Origin: an uncultured bacterium
Lineage (GTDB): Bacteria > Chlamydiota > Chlamydiia > Chlamydiales > Parachlamydiaceae
DNA: 64,000 bases
Direction of reading: 5' to 3'
Assembly: GCA_964460985.1 (NCBI GenBank)
Contig: CAYWQX010000005.1
Coordinates: forward strand, 26,987-90,986
Of this stretch, positions 8,555 through 59,047 are shown in pieces. Below the pieces are notes generated by a model, which worked only from the letters and a program-made list of their open reading frames with translations, ran no database searches and was not told where the DNA came from. The translations under genes and the position numbers were made by a program. Each line of letters starts with the position of its first letter. Within the stretch, counting starts at the first letter, position 1.

Positions 8555-8603
8555 GAACCCTTGCCTTAAAAATATCCAAAGACTTAACAACGGTATATAA
8601 ATC

Positions 8604-10789: not shown

Positions 10790-13700
10790 TTACTTTGGCG
10801 GTTTAGTTTGAGAGGCCTTTTTCAAAGCTTCAAGCACAAGGTTGGTTGACGTATCTCCTTCTGTGCTTTCAAAACTGGAGATCCCTTCCGGAAGATCGGC
10901 AGGATCCATGGTAATCGCAATCGCAGCTACCGTATTGACGATTTTATCATTGTCTGGAGCGTTAAGACCGTCATTTTGGGAGCTTGGAACCGCGTTTTCT
11001 TTTTCATGTTTCACAACCATTTGAGACATGGCGGCAAGGGGTGTAACGTTACTGAAAGTGACGGCTCCCTGAGTCATTTTTCCGATATAGGCTAAAGCTT
11101 CATCAACCCCTTTGGCAATGAAAGGTTCTTGAATAGCATTGGTAGCATTATGAGAGCTTCGAATATCGACGGTTACATGCTGGATGATTACGATACCATT
11201 GATTTGGATTGAATAGACGAAGGAATCTTTTCCAATATATCCAGGAGTTGATTGGTATTTCCATCCGGTCTCTTGAGAAATCTCACCGTGAACGGGCTTA
11301 GTAATGAGTTTAATTGAAGGAGCGCCCGCTTCGTTAAGGGCAGGTATTTGTATGTCTTGCAGCTTCACCACCGTATTTTTAGGCTGTACAATATCAGGAA
11401 TCGTAGAAATGATTCCGTTTCTTGTTTCATCTAGCGTGACAAATTCTACTTTTGGAGTGAGGGAAATGTTTAAAGAGAGAGGATTATTGGCAGCTGTTTG
11501 AATCACATTTAAAGTTATCGTGTGAACTTCGCTATCACCATTCCCATCGGTCACTTTATAAGTAAAAGTGTCAACGCCGGAGAAATTAGCATTCGGAGTA
11601 TATCTGAAGGAGCCATCCGTATACAAAATTAAAATCCCATTTTTAGGCTGTTCGACAAGAATGGATTGTAGAGGATTATTCTCCACATCGGAGCTGCCGG
11701 ATAAAAGTCCTATCTCGCTCGATACTTGCAGCTGATTACCCGATACAAAGCTATAGGATTTATCGGTTGCTAGGGGAGCATCGTTGATAGGATGGATGGT
11801 TAGAGCGATCGTATCGCTTGCTGAAAGCATCGCATCGGTAGAGAGTTCTTGTGTTTGAATAGAAATGACCGCCGATCCATTGTAGTTGGCAGTTGGATCA
11901 AATTTTAATCCATTTAAAGCTTGGTTGATATCTTGAATAGAACCTGTAATCTCCATCACGCTATCGCCGGTTCCGCTGCCGGTTAATAAGGTGAGCCCTT
12001 GAAGAGTTGATAAAGTCAGCTTTCCATGAGTGGAAATCAAAGTGACTTTATAATCGCCGGTTAGGCCATCGATATCCGTGATCTGGATTTGATTGCCGTT
12101 AGCTTGGGAGAAGATAAGAGAGGTATCTTCATTGATAGTTTGAGCAGCTGGAATGAGATTAACCGGAGTATCATTCACACTCTCTAGATGAATCGAAATC
12201 GATTTGAGAGTACTTTTGTCTCCGTCATCGGTACGTATATTGAGAAGGATATCTCCATTATAGTTCGCATCGGCTCTAAAGGTCAGTCCATTTAGGGCTT
12301 TATTGATATCTTGAGTAGATCCTCTGATCGCAAGATTTCCCGCCGTGTTATCTAAAATAGTGATTCCGTCTAAACTGCCGAGAGTCAATGTGCCGGATCC
12401 TACAGATAACGTAACGGTAAGGATAGGATTGTCGATATCTTCGACATATATAGGATTTTGAGTCGCATCCGAGAAGACAAGAGGTGTGTCTTCATTGCTT
12501 GACTGCGGTCCCGGTACCTGAAGAGTGGGTGCATCATTCACTTGGTTTACATCGATAGGAATAAATTTCTGAGTGGTCATATCGCCATCGTTTGCCGTGA
12601 ATTCCATGGTCGTAGATCCGTTGAAGTTTAAGCCGGGAGTAAATAGAAGGCCATTTAAAGCTTGGTTGATAGAAAAAGCTGTACCGCTAAAGATAAGGGT
12701 AGAATCGTTAGTTCCTGTTCCCTGTATGAAGGTAAGCCCTTCAAGACCGCTTAAAGTGATTTTTCCATCTGGGGCAGATAAAGTGACTGTTAGGGTTGTA
12801 TTATCTATGTCATTTACTTGTAGCGCATTGCCATTTTCTTGAGAGAAGACAATTCCCGTATCCTCTAAAGTGCTTTGAGTGGATGGAACTTGCGAAGTCG
12901 GCTGATCGTTAATCGGACTGATCTGAATATTGATGGTTTTGGTTTCAGAAAGGTTTTGATCAGACACGGTCACTTGGATCGCTGCAGATCCATTGTAGTC
13001 TTTGGTTGGAATAAATTTTAAGCCATCTAATGCCAGATTGATATCTGCTGTATTCCCTGTAAATGTCATCGTTGAATCGTTAGATCCTGTGCCTGCACTA
13101 AAGTGGATGCCTGATACTTGACTTAAAACGAGTGTTCCATTGGAAGCACTAAGGGTAACCGTTACTTCAGAGCTATCGATGTCCTGCACAATGATCGCAT
13201 TCGAGTTTTCGGGCGAGAAAATAAGGGTGGTATCTTCCTGAACTGCTTGTAAGGAGGGTATAATGCTGAAAGGGGCATCGTTCACAGCGTTTACGTGAAT
13301 ATTGATAAGACCTGTATCGGTTAAAGAGCCGTCTGTGGTGGTGACTGAAAGAGAGGCGGATCCTTCAAAGTCAGGATTTGCGTTAAATGCAAGCCCATTG
13401 AGTGCTGTATTGATAGCTAAAAGAGAGCCGCTAAAGGTCATTGTACTGTCTAGTGTTCCATCTCCTTTTGTAAAGGTAAGGCCTGAAAGTCCATTCAGGG
13501 TGAGAAGCCCGTTGGTTGAGGTTAAGGTGACAGTGACTGATGAAGAATCAATATCTAGTACTGAAATGGCATTTCCATTTGAAGTTGAGAATATAAGGGA
13601 TACATCCTCATTAACCGATTGGCTTTGTGGAAGAGATTGTACAGGTTGATCATTTTGAGCGGTCACATCGATTAAGATAGTGGAAATATCCTCTAAAGCT

Positions 13701-22700: not shown

Positions 22701-25700
22701 CCCGCGGTAAAGGTAAGGCCTGTCGTTCCGTTTAAGGTAAGGGCTCCATTGGTAGCTGTCAGAGTAACTGTCACATTAGAGTTGTCAATATCATTGATAG
22801 AGATCGCATTAGAATTAGCACTTGAAAAGACAAGGGCAGTATCTTCATTCACCACTTGAGCCACCGGTACACTGTTAACGGGAGCGTCATTCACTGCGTT
22901 GACGGTGATATTAATGTTATCTGTATCGGTTATAGAGCCATCGTTCGTTATAATTTGTACGGAAGCGGATCCGTTATAGTTAGCCGTCGGGATAAACTGA
23001 AGGCCATTTAAGGCAGCGTTGATATTTGCTTGCGTACCGGAGAAGGTCATCGTCCCGTCTGAGATCCCATCGCCTGCAGTAAAAGTAAGCCCCGTTATTC
23101 CGTTTAAGGTAAGGGATCCATTTATAGCGGTTAAGGTGACAGTGACAGTAGTATTATCCACATCGCTTAAAGAGATGGCATTGGAGTTAGAGGTCGAGAA
23201 AACAAGGGTGGTATCTTCATTGACCACTTGAGCGACGGGGACGCTATTAATGGGTGCGTCATTAACCGGATTGACCGTGATACTAATACTATCTGTATCG
23301 GTTAAAGAACCGTCGGTTGTGGTGATTTGAACCGAGGCAGAGCCGTTAAAATTCGAATTAGGAATGAATTGAAGACCGTTTAAAGCATTATTGATAGCAG
23401 TTTGAGTGCCGCTAAAGGTCATTGAAGCATCGGAAGTGCCATCGCCCGCGGTAAAGGTAAGGCCGGTAAATCCGTTTAGGGTAAGCGCTCCGTTTGTAGC
23501 TGTTAATGTCACCATGACATTTGTATTATCTACATCATTCAGTGTAATTGCATTGGAATTTACGGAAGAGAAGACAAGGGGTGTATCTTCGTTAATAACC
23601 TGCGCGACAGGTATACTATTAACAGGAGCGTCATTCACCGCATTAACGGAGATATTAATATTATCAGTGTCTGTTAAAGAGCCGTCAGTCGTTACAACTT
23701 GTATCGAGGCGGATCCATTATAGTTTGAGTTCGGTAAGAAAGTAAGTCCATTTAAGGCAGCGTTAATGTTAGCCTGAGTGCCTGAGAAAGTCATAGTCGA
23801 GTCTGAAGTCCCATCGCCTGTAGTGAAGGAAAGACCGGTGATACGGCTTAAGGTGAGGGCGCCATTTGTAGCGGTTAAGGTGACCGTGACAGTGCTGTTA
23901 TCTATATCGTTAATAGAGATATTTCCGTTGAAGACAAGAGGAGTATCTTCATTAACCGTTTGCGCTACCGGAACGGTATTAATCGGTGTATCATTAACTG
24001 CATTCACGGTGATATTGATGTTGTCGGTATCAGTAATTGAACCGTCAGTTGTTATGATTTGAATCGAGGCAGAGCCGTTATAATTCGAGTTCGGAAGGAA
24101 TTGAAGACCGTTTAAAGCATTATTGATAGTAGTTTGAGTGCCGCTAAAAGTGATCGTACCATCCGCGATTCCATCTCCTGTCGTGAGGTTAAGTCCTGTC
24201 GTTCCATTTAATGTAAGGACTCCATTGGTAGCCGATAAAGTAACGGTTACAGTCGAATTATCTACATCATTAATGGAGATGGCATTGGAGTTAGCAGTCG
24301 AGAAGACAAGCGTTGTGTCTTCATTGACAACTTGAGCGACGGGTACGCTATTTACAGGAGCGTCATTGACCGCATTGATAGTGATATTAATGTTATCGGT
24401 ATCAGTAATTGAACCATCGTTCGTTACGATTTGAACAGAAGCCGATCCATTATAGTTTGCGGTCGGAATGAACTGAAGACCATTTAAAGCGGTATTGATA
24501 GCCGATTGAGTGCCGGTAAAGGTCATCGTTCCGTCAGAGGTTCCATCACCTATAGTAAAGGTAAGGCCTGTCGTTCCGTTTAAGGTAAGGAATCCATTCG
24601 TAGCGGTAAGAGTAACCGTTACAGATCCATTATCAACATCGGATACTGTGATAGCATTCGAATTAGCGCCTGAGAAGATAAGCGTGGTATCTTCGTTGAC
24701 GACTTGAGCGACAGGAACCGTATTAATGGGTGCGTCATTGATTGCATTGACCGTAATATTAATATTATCCGTATCGGTTGTAGCGCCATCGTTCGCTACA
24801 ATTTGAACAGACGCCGATCCATTGTAATTGACGTTTGGGATGAACTGAAGACCATTTAGAGCCGCATTGATCGCAGACTGAGTACCGTTGAAGGTCATGG
24901 TACTATCGGAGGTTCCATCGCCAGCGGTAAAGGTAAGTCCTGTCGTTCCGTTTAAGGTAAGGGCTCCATTGGTAGCTGATAAAGTAACGGTTACAGTCGA
25001 ATTATCTACATCATTAATGGAGATGGTATTGGAGTTAGCAGTTGAGAAGACAAGCGTGGTATCTTCGTTGACCACTTGAGCGACCGGGACGCTATTCACA
25101 GGGGCGTCATTGACAGCATTGACGGTGATATTAATGTTGTCGGTATCGTTTGTAGAGCCATCATTCGTTACAATTTGTACGGAAGCGGATCCGTTATAGT
25201 TAGCGATAGGTGTGAACTGAAGACCATTTAGGGCGGTGTTGATCGCCGATTGAGTGCCGGTAAAGGTCATCGTTCCGTCAGAGGTTCCATCGCCAGCGGT
25301 AAAGGTAAGTCCTGTCGTACCGTTTAAGGTAAGAGTGCCATTGGTAGCGGTTAAGGTGACAGTAACTATGGTATTATCCACGTCGCTTAAAGAGATTGCA
25401 TTCGAGTTAGCGGTCGAGAAGACAAGCGTGGTATCTTCGTTGAGCACTTGAGCGACGGATACACTATTAACGGGGTTATCGTTGACAGGGGTGATGTTAA
25501 TATTGATCGTATCGGTGTCAGTTAGGCTCCCATCGGTTGTGATGACTTGGAGGGAAGCAGATCCGTTATAATTAGCAGCAGGAATAAACTGCAGGCCATT
25601 CAGCGCTGTATTAACGGCCGCCTGGCTGCCGATAAACTTCATGGTTCCATCAGAGATTCCATCGCCCGTTTGGAATGTAAGACCGGTTAAGTTTCCTAAA

Positions 25701-28700
25701 GTAAGTAAACCATTCGTAGCAGTAAGAGTAACCGTTACAGATCCGGTATCGACGTCAGATACGGTGATAGCATTCGAATTGGCGGAAGAGAAGACAAGGG
25801 GTGTATCTTCATTCACTACTTGAGTGACGGGAACGCTATTTACAGGTGCGTCATTGACCGCATTAACGGTGATATTGATGTTATCGGTATCGGTTATAGA
25901 GCCGTCGGTCGTGACAACTTGTATCGAGGCGGAACCATTATAGTTAGCTGTAGGTATGAACTGAAGACCGTTTAAGGCAGCGTTGATATTAGCCTGAGTG
26001 CCTGAGAAAGTCATTGTGCTATCAGTAGTTCCATCGCCAGTGGTAAAGGAAAGACCGGTGATACGGCTTAAGCTAAGGGCGCCATTTGTTGCGGTTAAGG
26101 TGACCGTGACAGTACTGCTATCCACATCGTTAATAGAGATATTTCCGTTGAAGACTAGAGGAGTATCTTCATTAACCGTTTGAGCTCCCGGAACGGTATT
26201 AACGGGAGCGTCATTGACCGCATTCACGGTGATATTGATGTTATCGGTATCGGTGGTTGATCCGTCGTTGGTTACAATTTGAACAGACGCCGATCCGTTA
26301 TAGTTAGCGGTCGGGATGAACTGAAGACCGTTTAGAGCGGTGTTGATCGCGGATTGAGTACCGGTAAACGTCATCGTTCCGTCATTGGTTCCATCGCCAG
26401 CAGTAAAAGTAAGCCCAGTTATTCCGTTTAAGGTAAGAGCGCCATTGGTAGCGGTTAAGGTGACGGTAACTGTGGTATTATCCACGTCATTTAAAGAGAT
26501 AGCATTTGAGTTAGCATTTGAAAAGACGAGGGGAGTATCTTCGTTGACGACTTGAGCGACGGGAATGGTATTGATCGGAGCATCATTGACTGGGTTTACT
26601 GTGATGTTAATACTATCTGTATCGGTTAAAGAACCGTCGGTTGTGGTGATTTGAACCGAAGCAGAGCCGTTAAAATTCGAATTCGGCAGCAATGAAAGAC
26701 CATTTAAAGCGGTGTTGATCGCTGATTGAGTGCCGGTAAAGGTCATCGTTCCGTCAGAGGTTCCATCGCCAGCCGTGAAGGTAAGTCCTGTCGTACCGTT
26801 TAAGGTAAGAGTGCCATTGGTAGCGGTTAAGGTGACAGTAACTATGGTATTATCCACGTCGCTTAAAGAGATTGCATTCGAGTTAGCGGTCGAGAAGACA
26901 AGCGTGGTATCTTCGTTGAGCACTTGAGCGACGGATACACTATTAACGGGGTTATCGTTGACAGGGGTGATGTTAATATTGATCGTATCGGTGTCAGTTA
27001 GGCTCCCATCGGTTGTGATGACTTGGAGGGAAGCAGATCCGTTATAATTAGCAGCAGGAATAAACTGCAGGCCATTCAGCGCTGTATTAACGGCCGCCTG
27101 GCTGCCGATAAACTTCATGGTTCCATCAGAGATTCCATCGCCCGTTTGGAATGTAAGACCGGTTAAGTTTCCTAAAGTAAGTAAACCATTCGTAGCAGTA
27201 AGAGTAACCGTTACAGATCCGGTATCGACGTCAGATACGGTGATAGCATTCGAATTGGCGGAAGAGAAGACAAGGGGTGTATCTTCATTCACTACTTGAG
27301 TGACGGGAACGCTATTTACAGGTGCGTCATTGACCGCATTAACGGTGATATTGATGTTATCGGTATCGGTTATAGAGCCGTCGGTCGTGACAACTTGTAT
27401 CGAGGCGGAACCATTATAGTTTGCAGAGGGTAGGAAGGTAAGTCCATTCAAAGCCGCGTTGATATTAGCCTGGGTGCCTGTAAAGGTCATGGTCGAGTCT
27501 GAAGTCCCATCACCGGCGGTAAAGGAAAGACCGGTGATACGGCTTAAGGTAAGGGCGCCATTTGTTGCCGTCAAAGTGACGGTGACGGTTGAGTTATCGA
27601 TATCGTTAATAGAGATATTCCCGTTGAAGATAAGAGGAGTATCTTCATTAACCGTTTGCGCTCCCGGAATAGTGTTAATCGGTGCATCATTCACAGCATT
27701 CACGGTGATATTGATATTGTCCGTATCGGTTATAGAACCATCGTTCGTTATAATTTGAAGAGAGGCCGATCCGTTATAGTTAGCGTTCGGGATGAACTGA
27801 AGACCGTTTAAGGCGGCGTTGATATTTGCTTGTGTACCGGAGAAGGTCATCGTTCCGTCAGAGGTTCCATCGCCGGCAGTAAAAGTAAGGCCTGTAATAC
27901 GACTTAAGGTAAGAGCGCCATTAGTCGCATTTAATGTAACGGTAACGTTTGTACTGTCTACATCGTTTAAAGAGATAGCATTGGAATTAGCGGTCGAGAA
28001 GACAAGCGGTGTGTCTTCATTGACAACTTGAGCAACGGGCACGCTATTTACAGGGGCGTCATTCACCGCATTCACGGTGATATTAATATTGTCCGTATCG
28101 GTTATAGAACCGTCATTTGTTATAATTTGTACAGAAGCCGATCCGTTATAGTTAGCGGTAGGTATGAACTGAAGACCGTTTAAGGCGGCATTGATATTTA
28201 CTTGCGTACCCGAGAAAGTCATTGTTCCGTCAGAGGTTCCATCACCTGCAGAAAACGTAAGCCCAGTAGTACGACTTAAGGTAAGGGCTCCATTGGTAGC
28301 GGCTAAGGTGACAGTGACAGTTGTATTATCTACGTCGTTCAAGGAGATCGCATTGGAATTAGCAATTGAAAAGACAAGGGCGGTATCTTCGTTCACTACT
28401 TGAGCGACAGGTACTGAATTGATAGGCGCATCATTGACAGGGTTGACCGTAATATCTACCACATCGGTGGAGCTTAACTCTCCGTCGCTCGTTGTGATTG
28501 AAAGAGAGGCGGAGCCATTGTAATTTGAATTGGGAAGGAAACTAAGACCATTTAAAGCATTATTTATGCTGGTTGAAGTTCCACTAAACTGCATAACACT
28601 ATTTGATGAGCCATTACCTTCAAGGAAAGTAATTCCCTCTGTGCTTCCTAGAGTAAGCAATCCATTGGTGGCGATGAGTTGGACCGTGATTTCCGTATTA

Positions 28701-37700: not shown

Positions 37701-40700
37701 ATCGTATCGTTATCGGATAATGTTCCATCGGAGGTCATTATATTCAATGACGCAGAGCCTGAAAAATTAGGCGTAGGGGTAAATGAAAGTCCATTTAAAG
37801 CAGCGTTAATCTGACTCGAAGTGCCGCTAAAGGTCATTAAACTGTCGGCAGTCCCATCTCCGCTTGAAAAACTTAAGCCTGTTAATTGACTTAAGGTGAT
37901 AACGCCATTTGTGGCTGTTAGAGTAACGGTTAAAGTAGAATTCTCGGCATCTGAAACGCTAATTTGTCTTCCAAGGGAAGAGGAAAAAATAAGAGCCGTA
38001 TCTTCATTAACCGATTGCGAAGAGGGAACTTGATTAATGGGTGCATCATTGACCGCATTGACAGTAATAGATACCGTTTCAGTATCTGTGAGCGCGCCGC
38101 CCGATCCAATATTACCAAGGTCGTTAGCAATAATTTGAAGAGAAGCAGATCCACTGAAATCGGCCGATCCCTGAAAACTAAGGGTTAAAAGAGAGGCATT
38201 AATGTCACTGATAGTTCCCGTGAAAGTCATGCTCCCATCAGCCACGCCATCACCATTTGTAAAGGTAAGGCCGCTAATTGATCCAAGAGTCAATAACCCG
38301 TTTGTAGCTGTCAAAATGATTTGATAGTTTCCGGAGCTTCCGTCAATATCTGAAAGCTGAATTTTATTGCTTCCCGATAAAGCAATAGAGGTGTCCTCAT
38401 TTACACTTAAAGAGGTAGGATAGGAAAGGACGGGGGCGTCATTAACAGCTCCCACACTCAATGTGACCGTTTTTGTGAAAGTTCCTCCTGTTCCATCATT
38501 TAAAGTATAGGTAAAGGTATCAGTTCCATTGAAATTGGCGTTCGGAGTGTATTGGAACGAGCCGTCTGAGTTTAGATAGTTTAAAGTTCCGTTAGATGGG
38601 TTAGTCCAACCCGCGATAAAAACAGAATTTGGAGTTTCTGCATCAGAGACTCCTGCCATCAAACCGGAGGAACTATTTACGGTCAGGACTGCATCCTCCG
38701 TTGCATTATAAGTTTTATCACCTACAGTCGGATCAGAGTTGGTTGGATTATAACCCCATAACTCACGGCCTGTAGCTCCCGTGCCGGTTCCGGTATTAGC
38801 TGAGAAATAGAGAGTGCTTCCAGAAATCGTTAAACTGGCAGGAGAGGAACCTGAAGATCCAGATAAAATATCTTTCACCATCAACGTTCCGGCCGAAGTT
38901 CCGTCCGACACCCACAGCTCTGTTCCATTAGATCCATTGGTGGCTGTAAAGTAGACAAGACCATTATAAGCAATTAAATTAGCCGCCCCTGAGGAGCCTG
39001 TCGCACTGATTTCTTTGACTAAAACAGTGCCGCCTGAAGTCCCATCCGATTTGAAGAGTTCTATGTTGGTAGATGTAGAACTGCCGGCGGTAAAATATAA
39101 AACTCCATTGTTATTAACGAGGTTGGAAGGGGTCGATCCGGTTGTTCCTGATATAATATCCCTAACGATGTAAGTTCCGGCAGAGGTCCCATCCGATCTC
39201 CACAATTCTGAGCCTTCAGCTGTAGTCGTCGCTCTAAAGTATAAAAGATTATCTACGGCAGTCAAACTGCCTGCAGAAGATCCTGTTGCACCCGTGTTAA
39301 TATCCCTGACTAATACTGTGCCGCTCGATGTTCCGTCGGACTTCCAAAGTTCTTGCCCCTCATTAGAGGTGGTGGCAAGGAAGTAAAGGGTGCCATTGAC
39401 GTTCGTGAGGGCGGTAGGGGAGGAGCTTGAGGAGCCTGAAGACCTGATATCTTTAACTAGAACAGTCCCATTAGAGGTGCCATCCGATTTCCAGAGTTCT
39501 ACCCCTTTTGATCCATCGTTTGCGGTAAAATAAAGAGTGTTTCCAATCGCTAAAAAGTTAGCCGGGCTTGAACTTCCCGAGCCCGATCGAATATCTTTTA
39601 CTATTACAGTTCCGTTAGATGTTCCATCCGACTTCCAAAGCTCAACCCCGTTGGTTGAATTGTTAGCGGCAAAGAAGAGGGTGCCGTTTACATTGGTAAG
39701 GGAAGTGGGAGAGGCGCTAGAAGTTCCGGATCGAATATCTTTAACTAGTACAGTGCCATCAGCAGTACCATCGGACTTCCAGAGTTCTACCCCATTGCTG
39801 GCGGTTGTCGCAGTGAAAAATAAAGTGCCGTTTACATTGGTTAAATTGCTCGGGCTTGAGTTGGCTGTACCGGTATTGATATCTTTTACAAGGACAGTCC
39901 CTGCAGCGGTTCCATCGGTTTTCCAAAGCTCTGTTCCATTCGTGCTATCGGTGGCGGTGAAAAACAATGTCCCGTCAACATCTCTAAAGTTGACAGGATT
40001 GGAGGAGCCTGTTCCTGAGACGATGTCATTCACCAGATAGACGGTATTATCTAAAACACCCACCCAATTATCTAGTTGAGATGCATTGAAATAGGTCACT
40101 TTAGCATCGATATTTCCCTCTTCTAAAGTCCAGTTGCCCCCGAGAAGCTCCGATCCTGTGAGGTCGGTAGAGGCGGCAATCGATACAAAGTGGCCAGACG
40201 AAGTGTCGTCGATAAAAGTGTCTAGGTGTTTCACGAGATCAAGACCTGCTTGATCGCTCGCTACATTACAGGCAAGTAAATCAATCCGCCCTTCGTTTTT
40301 TACCAAGCTTGAAACATCTTTCCAAAAGGTTTGAAGCTGGGCATCCGATTCGAGTCCTTGCATGGACATTGTTTTCGAAGCAGTAAGAGAAAACTCCGCA
40401 TCCGAGCCGTAGCTTACAAAGGCGATCGAATCGGCTTTTTGGCCTCCTAGTTTATCGGAGATCTGTTGATAGATATCCTCAAGCGAGCTTTTTGAGGCGT
40501 CATAGGTCACTATTTTGACATCATCACGGGTTGACTGGGCTAGAATATCGACGTTTTTAACCTGAGAGGATAAAACAATAACTTTTACCGGCTCTTTATT
40601 AGTCTGCAGGGCATCAGAGCCATGGTCGCTATCACCGAGCGCTTGAGGGGCGTTCTTCTCGCTTTGTTGATTCTGGGACTCCGATCCGCTTTGTTTGGAC

Positions 40701-40882
40701 TCGGCTGTTTGATGATTGCTATCATTTTGCTGTTTTTGCGCTTCCGCCTGTTTTTGGACTTGATGCTCCTGTTCTTGAGCGGCTGCCTGATTGGAAATAT
40801 CTGCCGCTGCAGCGGCATCAAGGAGGATCCTTTCTTCCAGGGGTATGATTCTTAAAGGGACTCCGCCTTGATCATTCTTCAT
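10790..40882 (-). CDS. Giant (10,030 aa) repetitive adhesin-like surface/secreted protein: LEPR-XLL motif, DUF4347-like domain, ELWxxDGT repeats, ~70 Ig/cadherin-like repeats
   Basis: Single uninterrupted 30,093-nt ORF with an ATG start in an ATGA overlap with the upstream TolC-like gene. From N to C:
- N-terminus PLRIIPLEERILLDAAAA (LEPR-XLL type), then a Q/E/S-rich linker.
- A DUF4347-like block ending LLGGNWTLEEG.
- 8-9 copies of [ST]ELW[KR]SDGT.
- A ~372-nt tandem array with (V/I)ND(A/T/N)P junctions.
- Two cadherin-like domains and a ~150-aa non-repetitive tail. Confidence 0.95.
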   Translation of the reverse strand: MKNDQGGVPLRIIPLEERILLDAAAAADISNQAAAQEQEHQVQKQAEAQKQQNDSNHQTAESKQSGSESQNQQSEKNAPQALGDSDHGSDALQTNKEPVKVIVLSSQVKNVDILAQSTRDDVKIVTYDASKSSLEDIYQQISDKLGGQKADSIAFVSYGSDAEFSLTASKTMSMQGLESDAQLQTFWKDVSSLVKNEGRIDLLACNVASDQAGLDLVKHLDTFIDDTSSGHFVSIAASTDLTGSELLGGNWTLEEGNIDAKVTYFNASQLDNWVGVLDNTVYLVNDIVSGTGSSNPVNFRDVDGTLFFTATDSTNGTELWKTDGTAAGTVLVKDINTGTANSSPSNLTNVNGTLFFTATTASNGVELWKSDGTADGTVLVKDIRSGTSSASPTSLTNVNGTLFFAANNSTNGVELWKSDGTSNGTVIVKDIRSGSGSSSPANFLAIGNTLYFTANDGSKGVELWKSDGTSNGTVLVKDIRSSGSSSSSPTALTNVNGTLYFLATTSNEGQELWKSDGTSSGTVLVRDINTGATGSSAGSLTAVDNLLYFRATTTAEGSELWRSDGTSAGTYIVRDIISGTTGSTPSNLVNNNGVLYFTAGSSTSTNIELFKSDGTSGGTVLVKEISATGSSGAANLIAYNGLVYFTATNGSNGTELWVSDGTSAGTLMVKDILSGSSGSSPASLTISGSTLYFSANTGTGTGATGRELWGYNPTNSDPTVGDKTYNATEDAVLTVNSSSGLMAGVSDAETPNSVFIAGWTNPSNGTLNYLNSDGSFQYTPNANFNGTDTFTYTLNDGTGGTFTKTVTLSVGAVNDAPVLSYPTSLSVNEDTSIALSGSNKIQLSDIDGSSGNYQIILTATNGLLTLGSISGLTFTNGDGVADGSMTFTGTISDINASLLTLSFQGSADFSGSASLQIIANDLGNIGSGGALTDTETVSITVNAVNDAPINQVPSSQSVNEDTALIFSSSLGRQISVSDAENSTLTVTLTATNGVITLSQLTGLSFSSGDGTADSLMTFSGTSSQINAALNGLSFTPTPNFSGSASLNIMTSDGTLSDNDTIAITVNSVNDAPINNLPAAQTIAEEGTLSFNATNGNQISISDVDNTTSTVTLTVANGTLTLATKTGLTFSTGNGTSNSIMVFSGSVSNINAALNTLSYNPTTNFSGTDTLQISSSDGLTNTTDNLTINVTNVNDAPIATGPSLNQTVSEDTALIFSTANNNAFTVADVDNSNLTVTLTAVSGQISLASTTGLNFSVGNGTNNSSMTFSGASSAINAALNGMSFIGSPNYNGSASVQLSVSDGEFNDSKTAVINITAVNDAPVNTVPVAQVVNEDTTLVFSSANSNAISINDIDNSNATVTLTATNGALTLSSLTGLTFTTGDGTLDGTMTFSGTQSAINTALNGLQFIPTANYNGSASIQISTNDGFTTDTDSINITISAVNDAPINTVPVAQVVNEDTTLVFSSANSNAIAINDVDSNSVTVTLTSSNGVLSLSRTTGLSFSNGDGASDAAMTFTGTQANINAALNGLQFIPSANYNGSASVQIVTTDGTLTDTDTVNINIAAVNDAPINTVPVAQVVSEDTTLVFSSANSNAISINDIDNTNVTVTLTATNGALTLSGITGLTFTAGDGTSDGTMTFSGTQSAINTALNGLQFIPTANYNGSASVQIVTNDGSTTDTDNINITINAVNDAPVNSVPVAQVVNEDTTLVFSSANSNAISINDVDNTNVIVTLTATNGALTLNGTTGLTFTAGDGTADGTMTFSGSQSAINTALNGLQFIPTANYNGSASVQIVTNDGSTTDTDNINITINAVNDAPVNTVPVAQVVSEDTTLVFSSANSNAISINDVDNTNVTVTLTSTNGALTLSRITGLSFSAGDGTSDSSMTFSGTQANINAALNGLQFIPATNYNGSASIQIVTNDGSTTDTDNINITVNAVNDAPVNSVPVAQMVNEDTTLVFSTANSNAISLSDVDNTTVTVTLTATNGALTLNGTTGLTFTAGDGTSDGTMTFTGTQSAINTALNGLQFIPTANYNGSASVQIVTNDGSTNDTDNINITINAVNDAPVNSVPVAQVVNEDTTLVFSTANSNAVSINDVDNTNVTVTLTATNGALTLSGITGLTFTAGDGTSDGTMTFSGTQSAINTALNGLQFIPTANYNGSASVQIITNDGSITDTDNINITVNAVNDAPVNTVPGAQTVNEDTPLVFNGNISINDVDSSIVTVTLNATNGVLTLSGITGLSFTAGDGTSDSTMTFSGTQGNINAALNGLTFLPSSNYNGSASIQVVTTDGSITDTDNININVSAVNDAPVNSIPVTQIVNEDTPLVFSSANSNAITVSDVDTGSVTVTLTAANGVLTLGSITGLTFQTGDGTSDGTMKFTGTQAAVNSAMNGLQFIPAANYNGSASLQVITTDGSLTDTDTININITPVNDNPVNTVPVAQVVNEDTPLVFSTANSNAISLSDVDNTTVTVTLTATNGALTLNGTTGLTFTAGDGTSDGTMTFTGTQSAINTALNGLQFIPTTNYNGSASVQIVTNDGSSTDTDSVNITINAVNDAPVNSVPVAQVVNEDTTLVFSTANSNAISLNDVDNTTLTVNLTATNGALTLNGTTGLTFTAGDGTSDSTMTFTGTQSAINTALNGLQFIPTANYNGSASIQIVTNDSSITDTDNVNITVNPVNDAPINTVPIAQVVNEDTTLIFSTANSNAISLSDVDNTSVTVTLTATNGTLTLNGITGLNFSNGDGTSDGTMTFSGTQANINAALNGLQFIPTANYNGSASIQIVTNDGSITDTDNINITVNPVNDAPINTVPVAQVVNEDTTLIFSTANSNTISINDIDNSNVTVTLTATNGALTLNGITGLTFTAGDGTSDGTMTFIGTQSAINTALNGLQFIPTANYNGPASVQIMTNDGSTTDTDNVNIAVNAVNDTPVNSVPVAQVVNEDTTLVFSTANSNAISLSDVDNTTVTVTLTATNGALTLNGTTGLTFTAGDGTSDGTMTFTGTQSAINTALNGLQFISTANYNGSASVQIVTNDGSTTDTDNINITVNAVNDAPVNTVPGAQTVNEDTPLVFNGNISINDVDSSTVTVTLTATNGALSLSRITGLSFTTGDGTTDSTMTFSGTQANINAALNGLTFLPISNYNGSASIQVLTTDGSITDTDNINITVNPVNDAPLNTVPVTQVVNEDTTLVFSSANSNAITVSDVDTGSVTVTLTAANGVLTLGSITGLTFQTGDGTSDGTMKFTGSQAAVNTALNGLQFIPAANYNGSASLQVITTDGSLTDTDTININITPVNDNPVNTIPVAQVVNEDTTLVFSTSNSNAISLSDVDNTTVTVTLTAINGSLTLNGITGLTFTAGDGSSDGTMTFSGTQSAINTALNGLQFLPNSNFNGSASVQLTTTDGSLTDTDNINITVNPVNDAPINTVPVAQMVNEDTTLIFSTANSNAISINDIDNSNATVTLTATNGVLTLSRITGLTFTAGDGSSDGTMTFSGTQANINAALNGLQFTPTTNYNGSASVQIVTNDGSTTDTDNVNIAVNAVNDTPINSLPEAQTISEDTPLVFNGNLSINDVDSPTVTVTLTATNGALTLSGTSGLIFLEGSGSSDTTMTFTGTQANINAALNGLIFQPKENYNGSASIQVVTTDGSLSDSGLINIQVEAVNDDPINTIPVSQTVDAGKTLSFSLANSNPITLTDIDSEVVTVTLTATNGSLTINRVPGVEIDSLSGETLYFTGKIADVNNALNTLLFTTSDKNTGSASIQIETNDGKLSDSDIIHIDIQDAKALYNNVPVSQVIDKDTNLVFSSETANAISIINVTQERIEVTLSATNGTLEIGNQEGVEVTINRDGSFTLIGGSKEINKTLHSLTFRPSENYTGSASVTISTSDGKQSDTDTINIYINEPNRALINTVPSAQFMYEDSELAFSDKNGNTISLQYEGREEVIVTLTATNGSLILSDFKNIEILAGDKEGSSITLKGFAADINSALQSLTFTGLSDFNGSASLQIVTQTEGYQDVDNINIQIEAVNDAPVNQVPVAQSMSEDTPLVFSTANSNAITLADIDNTEITVQLIATNGLLTLGSTEGITFLEGNGSSNSVMQFSGTSTSINNALNGLSFLPNSNYNGSASLSITTSDGELSSTDVVDITVNPVNDAPINSVPVAQVVNEDTALVFSIANSNAISLNDVDNTTVTVTLAATNGALTLSRTTGLTFSAGDGTSDGTMTFSGTQVNINAALNGLQFIPTANYNGSASVQIITNDGSITDTDNINITVNAVNDAPVNSVPVAQVVNEDTPLVFSTANSNAISLNDVDSTNVTVTLNATNGALTLSRITGLTFTAGDGTSDGTMTFSGTQANINAALNGLQFIPNANYNGSASLQIITNDGSITDTDNINITVNAVNDAPINTIPGAQTVNEDTPLIFNGNISINDIDNSTVTVTLTATNGALTLSRITGLSFTAGDGTSDSTMTFTGTQANINAALNGLTFLPSANYNGSASIQVVTTDGSITDTDNINITVNAVNDAPVNSVPVTQVVNEDTPLVFSSANSNAITVSDVDTGSVTVTLTATNGLLTLGNLTGLTFQTGDGISDGTMKFIGSQAAVNTALNGLQFIPAANYNGSASLQVITTDGSLTDTDTININITPVNDNPVNSVSVAQVLNEDTTLVFSTANSNAISLSDVDNTIVTVTLTATNGTLTLNGTTGLTFTAGDGTSDGTMTFTGTQSAINTALNGLSLLPNSNFNGSASVQITTTDGSLTDTDSINITVNPVNDAPINTIPVAQVVNEDTPLVFSNANSNAISLNDVDNTTVTVTLTATNGALTLNGITGLTFTAGDGTNDGTMTFTGTQSAINTALNGLQFIPTANYNGSASVQIVTNDGSTTDTDNINITVNAVNDAPVNTVPGAQTVNEDTPLVFNGNISINDVDSSTVTVTLTATNGALSLSRITGLSFTTGDGTTDSTMTFSGTQANINAALNGLQFIPTANYNGSASIQVVTTDGSITDTDNINITVNAVNDAPVNSVPVTQVVNEDTPLVFSSANSNAITVSDVDTGSVTVTLTATNGLLTLGNLTGLTFQTGDGISDGTMKFIGSQAAVNTALNGLQFIPAANYNGSASLQVITTDGSLTDTDTININITPVNDNPVNSVSVAQVLNEDTTLVFSTANSNAISLSDVDNTIVTVTLTATNGTLTLNGTTGLTFTAGDGTSDGTMTFTGTQSAINTALNGLQFTPIANYNGSASVQIVTNDGSTNDTDNINITVNAVNDAPVNSVPVAQVVNEDTTLVFSTANSNTISINDVDNSTVTVTLSATNGALTLNGTTGLTFTAGDGTSDSTMTFNGTQSAINAALNGLQFIPNVNYNGSASVQIVANDGATTDTDNINITVNAINDAPINTVPVAQVVNEDTTLIFSGANSNAITVSDVDNGSVTVTLTATNGFLTLNGTTGLTFTIGDGTSDGTMTFTGTQSAINTALNGLQFIPTANYNGSASVQIVTNDGSITDTDNINITINAVNDAPVNSVPVAQVVNEDTTLVFSTANSNAISINDVDNSTVTVTLSATNGVLTLNGTTGLNLTTGDGIADGTITFSGTQTTINNALNGLQFLPNSNYNGSASIQIITTDGSITDTDNINITVNAVNDTPINTVPVAQTVNEDTPLVFNGNISINDIDNSTVTVTLTATNGALTLSRITGLSFTTGDGTSDSTMTFSGTQANINAALNGLTFLPNSNYNGSASIQVVTTDGSLTDTDNINISVNAVNDAPVNSIPVAQVINEDTPLVFSSVNSNAITLNDVDNTNVMVTLTATNGALTLNGFTGLTFTAGDGTSDASMTFSGTQTAINNALNGLQFIPNSNFNGSASVQITTTDGSLTDTDSISITVNPVNDAPINSVPVAQVVNEDTTLVFSTSNSNAISLSDVDNTTVTVTLTAINGSLTLNGITGLTFTAGDGISDGTMTFSGTQANINAALNGLQFIPTANYNGSASVQIITNDGSITDTDNINITVNAVNDAPVNSVPVAQVVNEDTALVFSSANSNAISINDIDNSNVTVTLTATNGALTLNGTTGLTFTAGDGTSDGTMTFSGTQTAINTALNGLQFIPTANYNGSASLQIITNDGSITDTDNINITVNAVNDAPVNSVPVAQVVNEDTPLIFSTVNSNSISINDIDNTTVSVTLTATNGALTLNGTTGLTFTAGDGTSDGTMTFSGTQTAINTALNGLQFIPTANYNGSASLQIITNDGSITDTDNINITVNAVNDAPVNCVPVAQVVNEDTPLIFSTANSNAISLDDVDNTTVTVTLTATNGVLTLNGTTGLIFTNGDGASDSTMTFTGIQSAINQALNGLQFSPTANYNGSASVQIVTNDGSITDTDNINITVNAVNDAPVNSVPVAQVVNEDTTLVFSNANSNAISLNDVDNTIVIVTLSATNGALTLNGTAGLTFTVGDGTSDEMMTFSGTQTAINTALNGLQFSPTANYNGSASVQIVTNDGSITDTDNINITVNAVNDTPINTVPEAQTVSEDTPLIFNGNISINDVDSTSVTVTLTATNGALTLSRTTGLTFTAGDGISDSTMTFTGTQTNINAALNGLTFLPNSNYNGSASVQIVTTDGSLTDTDNINITVHAVNDTPINTIPVAQITNEDTALIFSSANSNAITISDVDSVSVTVTLTATNGILSLGSLTGLTFETGNGTSDGTMTFTGTQAAINTALNGLQFIPTANYNGSASIQVVTTDGSLTDSDTISITINPVNDSPINSVPVAQVVNEDTALIFSTANSNAISLSDVDSSTVTVTLTATNGDLTLNGTTGLTFIAGDGTSDGTMTFSGTQTAINTALNGLSFLPNSNYNGSASVQIITTDGSLTDIHSINITVNPVNDTPLNTVPVAQVVNEDTALVFSTANSNALAVNDIDNESITVTLTATNGSISLNGTTGLIFTAGDGESDSTMTFNGTQAAINRALNGLSFIPNSNYNGPASVQMITTDGILSDIDNVNITINPINDAPFNQVPVAQTVNEDTPLIFSQANGNALRLTDIDSPVVTVTLNATNGLISLSGISGLTFSQGDGESDQTVTFSGNQNDINAALEGLQFTPAENYNGSASLQMITQDGSLTDIDSVNILVIPVNDVPINQVPQAQFINEDTELVFSSIHSNAITLMDIDSPTVTVTLTATHGVLSLSGISGLSFSDGDGLSDSTMTFTGTPSAINQALNGLKFLGSTDYNGSASIQIITNDGSLTDIDNINITINPVNDTPINLVPQAQVVDEDTPLIFSSVHSNAITVSDVDNVTVTVTLTSTNGHLSLNGITGLTFLRGSGTNDESMTFSGSQSAINQALNGLKFIGRENYNGSASVQINSTDGFMTDTSSVNITINPVNDTPYNRVPVAQVMNEDSTLVFSQATSNAITINDVDNANVTVTLTTTNGFLTLSSTSGLTFQAGDGVSDTAMTFSGTKEFINTALDGLQYTPISNYNGPASIQIVTTDGELIDTDNINIAINAINDQPFNTVPASLSISEETPLFFTGSNLISVADVDNSELTVTLNANNGTLTLSQITGLTFITGDGTSDSSMTFSGSSTNINNALNGMKFLGVSDYNGSASVQIITSDGELTDIDNINITITPVNDAPLNTVPVAQMVDEDTPLIFSQSQSNAISIADVDNSLLTVTLTATQGALSLSSVAGLSFTVGDGTFDTTMTFSGASSDINHALNGLVFLANKDFNGEASLHISTTDGTLTDSETVNITVNPVNDSPINSVPVAQVINEDSILTFSSVFSNQISINDVDSPIVTVTLTATNGDITLNGTSGLTFTSGDGVSDETMTFLGTQADINTALNGLKFLGKENYTGSSSLQITTYDGALTDSDSINIHITPVNDAPINNLPVAQVVSEDTPLVFPGTLSISDVDSPLVTVTLTATHGTLSLSQIAGLFFTEGDGASDTTMTFTGTQRDINSALNGLEFLGQENYHGSASIQIMTQDGDLTDTGNINIHITPVNDNPIQILPTLETTDEDTPLLFAGTVQVADIDSPVLTVTLTATNGSLTLSQMNDLQFAIGDGASDTTMTFTGTREDINTALNGLRFNPNENYHGSASIQMTTTDGFLSDTGNINIIINPVNDAPFNLVPVAQSVVEDGTLVFSSLNSNSIQIKDVDSPIVTITITATNGSLTLSQLTGLTFINGKGADDSTMTFSGSQANVNAALNGLQFTPETNYNGFSTLQITTNDGTLTDTSLVNIQVEAVNDTPINNLPAAQVVSEDTALIFSTAHSNAISLSDVDSSELTVTLTSTHGTLSLSGILGLTFTVGDGISDSTMTFSGSLTAINTALNGLSFMPLSNYNGSSSIEIVSTDGSLTDTQLLNITVLPVNDTPFNQVPQAQIVNEDTALIFSSANLNAITLEDVDSLAVTVTLSASNGNLTLSGIEGLTFLSGDGISDSTMTFSGSLSAINRALDGLQYMPDQDYNGPSSIQIITSDGTLTDTSNINITVTPVNDSPVISVPVAQVVNEDSELVFSSANSNLISITDIDSSEWTVTLTATNGSLTLNGITHLTFIEGDGLSDSTMTFKGSPSDINLALDGLVFAPSSDYNGSSLIQVVSSDGTLTDIKNINLSVNAVNDSPVNNVPVAQIVSEDTPLIFSSANANAISIIDIDSPIVTVTLNAANGTLSLNSLEGLNFTVGDGLNNTSMTFSGTLADINQALEGLRFLPDSNYNGSASIQIITNDGSLTETSQVNISVHAVNDHPVNTVPSAQTVNEDTPLIFSQQNSNAISLSDVDNPSITVTLTATNGSLTLNGITGLTFTAGDGYSDNTMTFTGSKEDINRALEGLEFLPNRNFNGSSSLQISTSDGEFTDVDHINIQVNAVNDAPVHQIPGPQVTNEDTSIVIPINVSDIDSDEVTIQLATQHGSITLNGTQGLTFVNGQNDSSTMTFSGTLESVNQALSGLKFNPDLNYNGTTSLQITSDDGNLSTLSSIDITINAVNDAPINTIPVSQIVQEDQTLVFSSSHLNAITINDVDSPVITVTLTAQNGLLTLAGTTGLTFIAGDGISDQTMRISGSKEAVNLALNGLTFDPVQDYNGPAQIQITTEDGALEDISTILIDVTAQNDQPVQSLPQSQSVNEDVSLIFSTSNGNAISVLDIDSSSVTVTLTSTNGLLTLNGLSGLTFTKGDGTLDSTMTFSGSLLAINTALNGLAFNANPDFEGSASLSVTTTDGSLTDTGLINIHVNAVNDAPFSIIPSLQAVQEDTTLIFSPENSNAIIVQDIDSSEVTVTLSASNGTLVLSQVSGIHFSAGTGSNDSTMTFTGNTADINLALDGLKFIPTKDYNGSAAIQVTVSDQNLSETKTINIQISPINDQPTSQVPSTQSTLEDTGIVFSQENGNALQVNDIDNTTLTVTLSAPDGKITLSGLEGLTFIQGTGTNDSTLIFSGTAFSINQALNGLLFTPGLNFNGSTTMEFTANDGDMTTQKFIPIDVNQVNDAPTLQVPGPQSSNEDTPLVFSDATQNPIYVEDIDNPILTVTLSVGSGTLTLGSLDGITILDNTAGNLAIRGSTQDINKALNGLTFRADANYNGDILLNIRTDDGDKSTLKSISIHLESVNDTPVNLIPAAQTINEDTSLIFSQANGNQIQITDIDGLTGDYKVTLISTHGKLTLSTLQGLTLLTGSGTGDSVMEITGSIQDINQALNGLKFDPTANYNGSAVISIQTQELSTDAMLSASDTIALTIHPINDAPLATDKSYSFVSGNQLQVSSEIGLLSGSSDVENNPLQSILVEQPKNGILILYTDGSFRYTPNANFSGVDTFTYKVTDGNGDSEVHTITLNVIQTAANNPLSLNISLTPKVEFVTLDETRNGIISTIPDIVQPKNTVVKLQDIQIPALNEAGAPSIKLITKPVHGEISQETGWKYQSTPGYIGKDSFVYSIQINGIVIIQHVTVDIRSSHNATNAIQEPFIAKGVDEALAYIGKMTQGAVTFSNVTPLAAMSQMVVKHEKENAVPSSQNDGLNAPDNDKIVNTVAAIAITMDPADLPEGISSFESTEGDTSTNLVLEALKKASQTKPPK
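11790..38445 (-). repeat. Intragenic tandem array, period 372 nt (124 aa) with a 360-nt short variant; about 70 units
   Basis: Consensus unit: VNDAPVNSVPVAQVVNEDTTLVFS-ANSNAIS-DVDN--VTVTLTATNGALTL-G-TGLTFTAGDGTSDGTMTF-GTQ-AINTALNGLQFIP-ANYNGSAS-QIVTNDGS-TDTDNINITVNA. The antisense ORFs in the track recur every 372 nt. The unit count is estimated from length divided by period, not counted one by one. Confidence 0.9.
38750..40050 (-). repeat. ELWxxDGT-type repeats (8-9 units of ~47-50 aa), probable beta-propeller region of the giant protein
   Basis: TELWKTDGTAAGT, VELWKSDGTADGT, VELWKSDGTSNGT (x2), QELWKSDGTSSGT, SELWRSDGTSAGT, IELFKSDGTSGGT, TELWVSDGTSAGT and RELWGYNPT. Each is followed by V-[KR]-DI and preceded by LYF/LFFTA. 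Confidence 0.8.
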
Positions 40883-42279
40883 AAATCATTCCTCAGCTGA
40901 TAGTGCATAGGGATGCCTAACGCATTATTGATAGCTTCTATAGAGGTCATTAAATTTCCATACTTTTCAAAGGCTGTCATTTCAGCTAAGAAAGCATCCG
41001 TTTTGAATCCTAAGAGATCCCCATCGTGAAACTCTCCTACCTTCTCAATGACTTTAGCATCCGATAATAACTTGGATTGGGCATCGGCATACTCTTTAGC
41101 GAGCTTCCAATTTTCTTCTGCATCGACATAAAGAAGGATAGCTAGCTGCAGCTGAGTGAGCACGCCAAGGGATAAAGCCACCCTATTTTTAATAACCAAT
41201 GTCCTTTGCTCTTCTGCCGTTTTCATATCGTAGTAGGCGGCAGGGATATTAAATAAATTATAAGTGACTTTTAAGCCGGCCTGCAGCCACTTATTGTACA
41301 CAAGAAACTTGTTGCTATCGAAATTGGTAGCTCCATAAAGACCTACGCTGGGAGCCATCAGAAGCGCTTGATTTCTGATCTCCTCGGTAAAGATCTTTTC
41401 TTCTAAGTCACGGCTATAAAGTTCAGGACGATTAAAAAGGGCTGTATCTTGAAGCTCTTCCCATTTGAAAGAAAATTCTCGGGGCATCTCCATCTCTTCA
41501 GGCACCAGTTTAAACGAATCGGCATCTTTAAACCCCATAAACTGGGCGAGCTGATTTTTGGCGGTGACAAAATCGCGGTGGAAGTCTTGAAGCTGAAGTT
41601 TAAGTTTAGAGAGCTGCGCGTCCATCTTCAGGGTTGGAACGGCAGGGATTGTTCCTTTCGTTGCAAAATATCTAAGCTTGTCTTGATATTCATTGATTTT
41701 TCGAATCAACTCCTCTGATTTTTCAACCCCTTTTTGAGCGAGCTGAGCCTTCCAATATGATTTTGTCACTTCCAAAACAACATTCTGGCTAAGTCTTCGG
41801 TATTCTAACTCCGCCATCAGCTCTTTGTTAGCCTCTTGCTTGGCTCGTCCGTAGCTGAGTCCAAAATCGAGTAAGTTCCAGGTATAGGTCAGATTGTAAG
41901 TCAAATCATGCTGCTCAGAGGATATACTGGGGGGAGCGGGCGGTTGATTGGTAAGCGATTGAGAGGAAGAGCCGGTATTGCGATTTCTTCCGTATTGCTC
42001 GCTGTTTAAGATGAGGCTAGGAAGAATTTTCCAGGTTGCGCTGGTAGCCATCTCCTGTTTGATGCGAACCTCTTGCTCTTTGACTTTGAGCTCCAGGTTT
42101 TGCTGTAAGGCAATTTCTATGATGTCATAGTATTTTAATGGTTTTTCGGGGATAGGGGTTCGATCAATTTCGAACGTATCCTCTTCCATTTTTTCGAGCC
42201 TTAAATAATCTCGATGCGGTGTCGCTGTCGGGCAGCAAGCAGTAAGAAATAAGCAGCTGAATATCAAACGGGATTTCAT
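40879..42279 (-). CDS. TolC-family outer membrane channel protein
   Basis: 466 aa. Lipoprotein-like N-terminus (LIFSCLFLTACC). Two-fold internal repeat of long helical segments rich in A/L/Q/E, as in outer membrane efflux proteins. Its stop overlaps the giant ORF start (ATGA). Confidence 0.75.
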   Translation of the reverse strand: MKSRLIFSCLFLTACCPTATPHRDYLRLEKMEEDTFEIDRTPIPEKPLKYYDIIEIALQQNLELKVKEQEVRIKQEMATSATWKILPSLILNSEQYGRNRNTGSSSQSLTNQPPAPPSISSEQHDLTYNLTYTWNLLDFGLSYGRAKQEANKELMAELEYRRLSQNVVLEVTKSYWKAQLAQKGVEKSEELIRKINEYQDKLRYFATKGTIPAVPTLKMDAQLSKLKLQLQDFHRDFVTAKNQLAQFMGFKDADSFKLVPEEMEMPREFSFKWEELQDTALFNRPELYSRDLEEKIFTEEIRNQALLMAPSVGLYGATNFDSNKFLVYNKWLQAGLKVTYNLFNIPAAYYDMKTAEEQRTLVIKNRVALSLGVLTQLQLAILLYVDAEENWKLAKEYADAQSKLLSDAKVIEKVGEFHDGDLLGFKTDAFLAEMTAFEKYGNLMTSIEAINNALGIPMHYQLRNDL

Positions 42280-49871: not shown

Positions 49872-49956
49872 AAATTAATAATTCACTTTTTTCTTCTTTC
49901 TAGCAATTAAGTTCTTAAATATCAAGATCGGTATGTAGATTGAACTGCACTTACGA

Positions 49957-51186: not shown

Positions 51187-51187
51187 A

Positions 51188-58796: not shown

Positions 58797-58843
58797 TGTT
58801 TTTAAGCTCAATATTTATAGGATCTTGTAATAAAAATTTAAGC

Positions 58844-58876: not shown

Positions 58877-58921
58877 AATATTATTAAAGGTTAAGAATAG
58901 ATCGATTCTAAGGAGCATGAA

Positions 58922-59008: not shown

Positions 59009-59047
59009 TTATTTTTTTGTTTCTCCTTAACTAGGTAGACACTAATT

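Follow-up and report, generated by a model that had tools for sequence, protein, structure and literature searches.

A giant DUF4347 protein of an environmental Chlamydiota member and a flanking TolC/HlyD/M50 gene cassette as its probable leader-dependent export or processing route

We analyzed a 64,000-nucleotide stretch of DNA from an uncultured member of the Parachlamydiaceae (assembly GCA_964460985.1, contig CAYWQX010000005.1, positions 26,987 to 90,986 of the forward strand), here called the window, which holds a single open reading frame (ORF) for a protein of 10,030 amino acids (aa). The gene, which is genuine and intact, comes from an environmental member of the Chlamydiota, and its product is a new, very large member of an already known and abundant class of proteins, those with a DUF4347 domain close to the N terminus. 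The giant gene stands among four genes that we refer to as the cassette. They encode a TolC-like outer-membrane factor (OMF), two HlyD-family adaptors, and a three-part fusion of an M50 metalloprotease, a HlyD-type adaptor, and a domain like the recognition elements (RREs) of ribosomally synthesized and posttranslationally modified peptides (RiPPs). The genomic context makes it probable that the cassette serves as a leader-dependent route of the TolC type for export or processing.

The giant ORF lies on the minus strand (10790..40882), is 30,093 nucleotides (nt) long including the stop codon, and has no internal stop, in agreement with the first-pass annotation, which had not given the strand. 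Given the base composition, 10,030 codons would lack a stop by chance with a probability of about 1e-250. Translation starts at an ATG with GAGGA 8 nt upstream, and this start and the stop codon of the upstream OMF gene overlap as ATGA; Val8 was considered as an alternative start and ruled out, its codon being GTC. Thr (15%), Asn (11%), and Ser (11%) are abundant in the protein, which contains only two Cys residues in total. Along its whole length we found no hydrophobic segment and no Sec or Tat-type signal, and GGxGxD (RTX), LPXTG, and PEP motifs gave 0 matches in the 10,030 aa, so that the earlier statement about missing RTX, sorting, and Sec signals stands. The conclusion drawn from it, that the export route is not evident, is correct for the ORF itself but not for its surroundings, where a conserved TolC/HlyD/M50 cassette flanks the gene and is met again beside DUF4347 giants of unrelated bacteria.

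DUF4347 proteins from unrelated sources open with the same short leader motif as the giant, in which it forms the stretch IIPLEERILLDAAAA (aa 12-26) with the core LEERILLDAA (aa 15-24; 40811..40840, minus strand). A word-indexed homologue search returned 6 matches for the N-terminal 290 aa and 3 for the DUF4347 alignment, and an exhaustive profile search of representative clusters (E up to 1e-3) was used instead. It yielded 13,340 representative clusters, many of them of proteins of 2,000 to 8,000 aa; DUF4347 usually begins 50 to 130 residues from the N terminus, in proteins of up to 7,924 aa. The strict leader pattern is present in 120 of the 146 best DUF4347 representatives and a slightly relaxed one in about 130; these 130 sequences give the consensus LE[ED]RIV[LF]D[GA]A, in which L, E, and R never vary and D hardly does, and the motif begins at a median position of residue 8. 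The remaining representatives are mostly truncated. About 11 of the 146 (among P0128 to P0273) bear classical Sec signal peptides instead of the LE[ED]RIV[LF]D leader, and because a Sec signal peptide takes its place in these proteins, the comparison suggests that the leader may be an alternative export signal. In the loci that we retrieved, the motif occurs on every DUF4347 giant with an intact start and on no other ORF, and no small leader-bearing ORF was found in any of them. A motif had been recognized at this position before and termed LEPR-XLL type; it is indeed present, but the LEPR-XLL model NF012209 reaches only 12.6 bits (E = 0.084, aa 14-26; cutoff, 17 bits), and the sequence fits the tighter LE[ED]RIV[LF]D[GA]A family. 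The motif is followed, as already described, by a low-complexity linker rich in Q, E, and S (aa 28-95; 40598..40801, minus strand).

The OMF gene (40879..42279, minus strand) lies directly upstream of the giant gene and encodes a TolC/OEP-family protein of 466 aa (OEP, 117 bits) with a lipoprotein signal (LTAC); its specific subfamily is also found directly upstream of DUF4347 giants elsewhere. At the other end, the gene for the 711-aa fusion protein (8604..10739, plus strand) converges with the 3' end of the giant gene, and no terminator-like site was found between the two convergent stops. Divergent from the fusion gene are the genes for two HlyD-family adaptors. Adaptor A (6422..8605, minus strand; 727 aa, or 710 aa from the Met at 8554) has a signal or anchor and a low-complexity C-terminal extension of about 460 aa, and adaptor B (5067..6425, minus strand; 452 aa) consists of a cytoplasmic N-terminal domain of about 180 aa, one transmembrane segment, and a HlyD domain. 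Three cassette proteins match HlyD_3/HlyD_D23, and in our reading of the sequences all three adaptors show coiled-coil hairpin-like stretches. The four-gene cassette encodes no transporter of the ATP-binding cassette (ABC), resistance-nodulation-division, or major facilitator type. The extension of adaptor A contains an internal repeat, KSKISLDQT[ED]SWLTTESS.SNSFENKTSLP, which occurs twice, and homologues of this adaptor range from about 259 to 727 aa. The cytoplasmic domain of adaptor B (aa 1-185) is conserved and common to non-chlamydial cassettes; Pfam gave only a weak PAS_4 match for it (E = 0.12), and a profile search against the PDB gave none.

The fusion protein combines an RRE/PqqD-like beta3-alpha3 domain (aa ~15-100), an M50 metalloprotease, and a HlyD-type periplasmic adaptor (aa ~445-711). 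Its nearest named relatives are proteins of Parachlamydiaceae, Chlamydiales, and Chlamydiota metagenome-assembled genomes, with 41 to 61% identity; going by the names of these homologues, an environmental chlamydia is the most likely source of the window. The M50 part matches PF02163 with 40.3 bits (cutoff, 27.2), and about seven transmembrane segments are predicted in it; the motifs HEFAH207 and N301xxPxxRFDGYY (residues 301-312, with P304 and D309) are conserved in at least 90% of 120 fusion homologues. Since the zinc-binding motifs are conserved and about seven transmembrane segments are predicted, the fusion is probably an active intramembrane metalloprotease. Among NCBIfam models, the M50 part comes closest to the daptide RiPP leader protease, with an E value of 8e-47 and a score under the cutoff. 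The first ~100 residues of the fusion are conserved and cytoplasmic, and an AlphaFold2 model built from a 33-sequence alignment (mean predicted local distance difference test [pLDDT] score, 76) places three strands before three helices. When this model was searched with Foldseek, the top eight matches were all RREs, with E values of 0.04 to 0.5. They were led by TbiB1 with leader peptide (probability, 1.0; TM-score relative to the target, 0.71; five chains from two entries), and they included PqqD, a lasso-peptide B1 protein with leader, and TigE; a profile search of the domain against PDB sequences was uninformative. The same RRE-like domain is found in non-chlamydial cassettes. By its predicted fold, we thus regard it as RRE-like and as a putative leader-binding domain.

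We used the four transport proteins of the window as phmmer queries against related loci; a metagenome scan for loci returned 12 of them. Eleven independent loci anchored on DUF4347 offered 2 kb or more of upstream DNA, and in 7 of these (L004, L006, L012, L013, L016, L018, and L022) relatives of the cassette flank the giant, with all four genes present in L016. Anchoring on the M50-HlyD fusion instead, we found a giant adjoining the cassette in five of eight chlamydial loci, namely, the window, L009, L011, L024, and L025. The giants of L009 (with Calx-beta), L024, and L025 measure 4,486, 4,034, and 4,587 aa, respectively. DUF4347 was confirmed in four of the five chlamydial giants; in L011 the contig ends before the N terminus, and the DUF4347 head is not seen. 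The order of the genes varies between loci, which speaks for a link in function and not for synteny kept by descent. The OMF relatives in giant loci are all of the window's 466-aa type. No ABC ATPase was part of a cassette in any related locus examined; matches of the ABC type were confined to oligopeptide-transporter ATPases in L010 and to copies of lptB at loci that are syntenic with the window. No further conserved accessory gene was found across the cassettes, none of the NCBIfam models is dedicated to a cassette protein, and in the open-access literature we found no description of the cassette, of its leader, or of the export of DUF4347 giants.

The domain that gives the class its name (aa 96-277; 40052..40597, minus strand) had been annotated as DUF4347-like, and the profile scan confirmed it with a full-length match to PF14252 (aa 101-277; 87.5 bits, E = 1e-24; gathering cutoff, 24.6). 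DUF4347 can be read as a clan-CD cysteine protease fold, similar to the cysteine protease domains (CPDs) of Tce1 and TcdA, in which the catalytic dyad is often lost. The family profile matches the TcdA CPD weakly (E = 0.08), with its "THG" and "LLAC" motifs aligned to the catalytic His and Cys of TcdA. For the AlphaFold2 model of the giant's own alpha/beta domain (pLDDT, 96.9), the top Foldseek match was Tce1 (9qpe_G, from the Hcp3-Tce1 complex; E = 1e-4), and further matches were a SAVED-CHAT protein (8tl0; E = 5e-4) and the Vibrio cholerae CPD (3eeb; E = 2e-3), with generic Rossmann-like folds scoring about equally. Tce1 (PA0256) bears DUF4347 (PMC8262886) and is a type VI secretion system effector for which a His/Cys dyad and a putative role as a TcdB-like cysteine protease have been described (PMC13323088). 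Both dyad residues are present in 136 of 191 DUF4347 copies (71%), and where they are lost, they are lost together. In the giant the dyad is not complete. Cys205, one of the two Cys residues of the protein, is kept (LLACNV), and a Tyr stands at the position of the catalytic His (FVSYGS), for which reason this DUF4347 is probably not an active protease. The DUF4347 profile also matches eukaryotic ECT2L (PDB 11xu, residues 288-459; E = 3e-20), whose copy has neither dyad residue. Several DUF4347 giants hold two or three tandem copies of the domain, the first often being degenerate. At two loci (L012, 1502-2728, and L021, 3570-4796, both on the minus strand) a stand-alone 396-aa protein with a C-terminal CPD-like His...Cys pattern (VLHAHGG, VLRACNVG) is encoded between cassette and giant.

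The remainder of the giant is made up almost entirely of repeats, and here, too, the domain order proposed from N to C terminus proved correct nearly item by item when checked with hidden Markov model scans and regular expressions. Eight canonical ELWxxDGT repeats and one degenerate copy (aa 290-714; 38741..40015, minus strand), where eight to nine had been counted, were recovered by regular expression, and TIGR04534 matched eight stretches with 532.6 bits (cutoff, 65); that this module forms a beta-propeller is our guess. Next comes the expected single cadherin-like/Big_9 domain (aa 715-813; 38444..38740, minus strand; Cadherin_5/Big_9 match at aa 715-810). The array proper (aa 814-9699; 11786..38443, minus strand), estimated before at about 70 units of 124 aa with VNDAP junctions, consists of 72 contiguous full-length cadherin-like/tandem-95-type units with (V)NDAP junctions. 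Fifty-four of these are exactly 124 aa long and nine are 120 aa long, and the unit consensus starts with NDAP. On the units, Cadherin_4 (134 bits), Cadherin_5 (106 to 126 bits), and Big_9 (91 to 113 bits) all score above their Pfam cutoffs, and tandem-95 (NF012211) reaches 198 bits in the last 1,000 aa (cutoff, 90). The array is closed by the two further cadherin-like/Big_9 domains that had been proposed (aa 9700-9895; 11198..11785, minus strand), seen as two Big_9 stretches in the last 330 aa.

The C-terminal tail (aa 9896-10030; 10793..11197, minus strand) is 135 aa long, close to the 150 aa first suggested, but it is not unique, being conserved in chlamydial orthologues. The giants of the window, L011, and L025 share the motifs SQ[MI]VVKHE, TVAA[IL]AI[TS][ML]DP, and [VI][LI][ED]AL[KR], which read SQMVVKHE, TVAAIAITMDP, and VLEALK in the window. 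No match to the tail was found in 150 DUF4347 representatives or on non-chlamydial DUF4347 giants, and the tail was accordingly rejected as a family-wide C-terminal signal. Searches of PDB sequences gave no relative for the ELWxxDGT module, for a two-unit repeat fragment, or for the tail. With units that match cadherin- and Ig-like models and with no RTX, sorting, or Sec signals, it is reasonable to read the giant as a very long extracellular fiber or adhesin. The NDAP junctions resemble Ca2+-binding cadherin linkers, and some 75 cadherin- or Ig-like beta-sandwich domains of about 4 to 4.5 nm each would give a rod of about 0.3 micrometers.

RREs bind leader peptides. In the route that we propose, the cytoplasmic RRE-like domain of the M50-HlyD fusion would bind the leader of the giant, and the M50 metalloprotease would cleave it off. 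The three HlyD-type adaptors would dock onto the dedicated TolC-like lipoprotein and so form a periplasm-spanning exit duct. Once outside the cell, the repeats would fold, perhaps with Ca2+ bound at the NDAP junctions, and such Ca2+-driven folding could act as a ratchet. If export proceeds with the N terminus first, the ELWxxDGT module would, speculatively, come to lie at the distal tip and the chlamydial tail could stay at the cell.

Several observations weigh against such a route. The RRE-like assignment stems from a medium-confidence model with weak Foldseek E values (0.04 to 0.5), and Pfam PqqD (PF05402) does not match the fusion's N-terminal domain even at E values up to 10. We know of no M50/S2P protease that acts as a protein-conducting channel. 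The cassette encodes no energy source, so that an unlinked translocase could be involved. Within the DNA available, no cassette genes were found at 4 of the 11 DUF4347-anchored loci (L005, L017, L020, and L027), and no giant lies within 10 kb of 3 of the 8 chlamydial cassettes (L010, L026, and L028). Finally, the conserved chlamydial tail could be a C-terminal signal like that of a type 1 secretion system (T1SS), or an anchor. Taking these points together with the conserved neighborhood and leader, we consider the odds to lean slightly toward the cassette exporting and/or processing the giant. It may be a new variant of TolC/HlyD-type export and possibly a new system, as judged from sequence, predicted structure, and gene neighborhood. 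The fuller proposal, an undescribed envelope-spanning secretion system that recognizes a cleavable LE[ED]RIV[LF]D[GA]A leader and exports DUF4347 giants without an ABC transporter in several phyla, including the Chlamydiota, is tentative, and we hold it to be possible rather than probable.

The most serious alternative is that the cassette processes, retains, or releases the giant, much as LapG and LapD act on LapA, with the M50 enzyme or the CPD-like domain trimming an N terminus that has crossed the inner membrane by another route. M50 proteases are cleavage enzymes and not channels, which is why this reading has to be taken seriously, and the cassette is without an ATPase; besides, a protease-like DUF4347 with its His/Cys dyad in 71% of 191 copies directly follows the leader, and the conserved cytoplasmic domain of adaptor B could be regulatory. 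Yet three alpha-hairpin adaptors and a dedicated OMF make up a complete duct across the periplasm, beyond what processing needs, the giant has no Sec or Tat-type signal, and the replacement of the leader by Sec signals in some members suggests that the leader directs export. On balance we regard the processing module as unlikely. Classical type 1 secretion of a LapA- or SiiE-like adhesin, C terminus first, would use the neighboring OMF and HlyD proteins as its channel and an ABC transporter encoded elsewhere, for example, at 51188-56217. It remains a rival because the tail is conserved among the chlamydial giants, and the flanking TolC-like OMF and HlyD-type adaptors would suit it, as would the C39-domain ABC exporter about 7 kb upstream. 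That exporter, however, belongs to an NHLP-type cluster (48309-58533, minus strand; NHLP family matches) encoding a cyclic nucleotide-binding protein, HlyD, C39-ABC, ABC, HlyD, and an OMF, and this OMF has no relative at other giant loci. Its two adaptors pass the TIGR03794 cutoff, and its two ABC subunits, the C39-ABC pair at 51188-56217, come closest to TIGR03796 and TIGR03797 but stay below the cutoffs. Just upstream, in a low-GC stretch (58710-59422, minus strand), lie three tandem small ORFs of 28 to 33 aa (VFVVGGRRLIWPM, TTRFGGGSFTWPM, and ANRFGGGGLTWPM), each made of MKRxxNKSKKNLKGG and a core of 13 residues with WPM at its end. Their KGG motif resembles a double-glycine leader, and by their sequences the three peptides are probably double-glycine-leader substrates of the NHLP-type exporter. 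With its own OMF, its own adaptors, and these small precursor-like genes, the cluster appears self-contained. As the giant, moreover, has no RTX repeats, its tail is absent from non-chlamydial DUF4347 giants, no related cassette includes an ABC ATPase, and the signal conserved throughout the family is N-terminal, type 1 secretion appears rather improbable.

It is also conceivable that cassette and giant are neighbors by chance, the M50-HlyD, HlyD, HlyD, and OMF proteins exporting a small peptide or a drug. The kinship of the M50 part to RiPP leader proteases, the RRE-like N-terminal domain, and the three cassettes that have no giant nearby would all fit this. But the same gene set stands beside DUF4347 giants at many unrelated loci in varied gene orders, the OMF and giant genes overlap translationally, and the leader motif is confined to giants, with no small leader-bearing ORF at any locus, which makes coincidence very improbable. 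Still less credible is that the giant gene is an artifact of assembly or a decaying pseudogene, that is, that the array was misassembled or that the gene is no longer expressed. The source is metagenomic, and two Logan short-read assemblies from other runs, base-identical to the window over 19,758 and 16,336 nt, cover the 3' 9.5 kb of the giant gene and then break inside the array. The gene also contains a single long exact repeat, a 644-nt duplicate inside the array (25302-25945 and 26778-27421) with copies 1,476 nt apart and in frame, which reflects either a recent duplication of four units or an assembly ambiguity and leaves the copy number of one 4-unit block uncertain. Against such an error stand the agreement of the two assemblies across those 9.5 kb, the divergence of the array units (mean identity, 66% for DNA and 68% for protein), the open frame through all 10,030 codons, and the intact ribosome-binding site and start-stop coupling to the OMF gene. 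In orthologues, too, the frame is open and the termini are conserved. The L011 orthologue keeps an open 1,232-aa C-terminal part with 46% identity to the giant (its M50-HlyD protein is 63% identical), which indicates that the gene is maintained, and the tail of the L025 giant is conserved.

Should the cassette prove to be the export route, it would account for the way in which thousands of giant surface proteins get out of the cell, and it would provide a leader signal that can be tested. It would also mean that a module for leader recognition and proteolysis in the manner of RiPPs has been reused on proteins some 1,000 times the size of peptides. For the environmental Chlamydiota, a fiber of about 0.3 micrometers, which is about the size of an elementary body, would be a candidate structure for host attachment.

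Among known systems, the giant T1SS adhesins (LapA with LapBCE in Pseudomonas, SiiE with SiiCDF in Salmonella, and MpIBP) resemble the present case in their long Ig- or cadherin-like, Ca2+-type tandem array, in the TolC-like OMF and HlyD-type adaptors encoded beside the gene, and in an N-terminal module before the repeats. In contrast to them, the giant has no RTX repeats and carries its conserved signal at the N and not at the C terminus, and the cassette includes no ABC transporter, three adaptors instead of one, and an RRE-M50 fusion at the inner-membrane position; LapG or LapD was not seen in the window. The LEPR-XLL proteins of NCBIfam (NF012209, "LEPR-8K") likewise have a short L-E-x-R-x-L-L type motif at the extreme N terminus of very large repetitive proteins, but the giant scores under the cutoff of that model, the canonical LEDRIVLDGAG leader of P0001 gives no match to it, and the consensus here is LE[ED]RIV[LF]D[GA]A. 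To the CPDs of MARTX, TcdA, and TcdB (C80) and to Tce1, DUF4347 is related by the alignment of its THG/LLAC motifs to TcdA and by Tce1 being the best structural match; it differs in that the giant has Tyr at the His site and in that the domain heads a fiber and does not lie within a toxin. With leader-peptide exporters and RiPP machinery (C39-ABC proteins of the PCAT/NHLP type; RRE/PqqD proteins, such as TbiB1; the daptide protease and YydH), finally, the system shares a conserved leader of short length at the N terminus, an RRE-like beta3-alpha3 domain fused to a protease similar to RiPP leader proteases, and HlyD and OMF partners as in the bacteriocin exporters of Gram-negative bacteria. It departs from them in that Pfam PqqD is unmatched and the NCBIfam daptide model stays below its cutoff, in that the protease is of the M50 and not the C39 type and ABC domains are missing, and in that the substrate would be no peptide but a protein of 10,030 aa.

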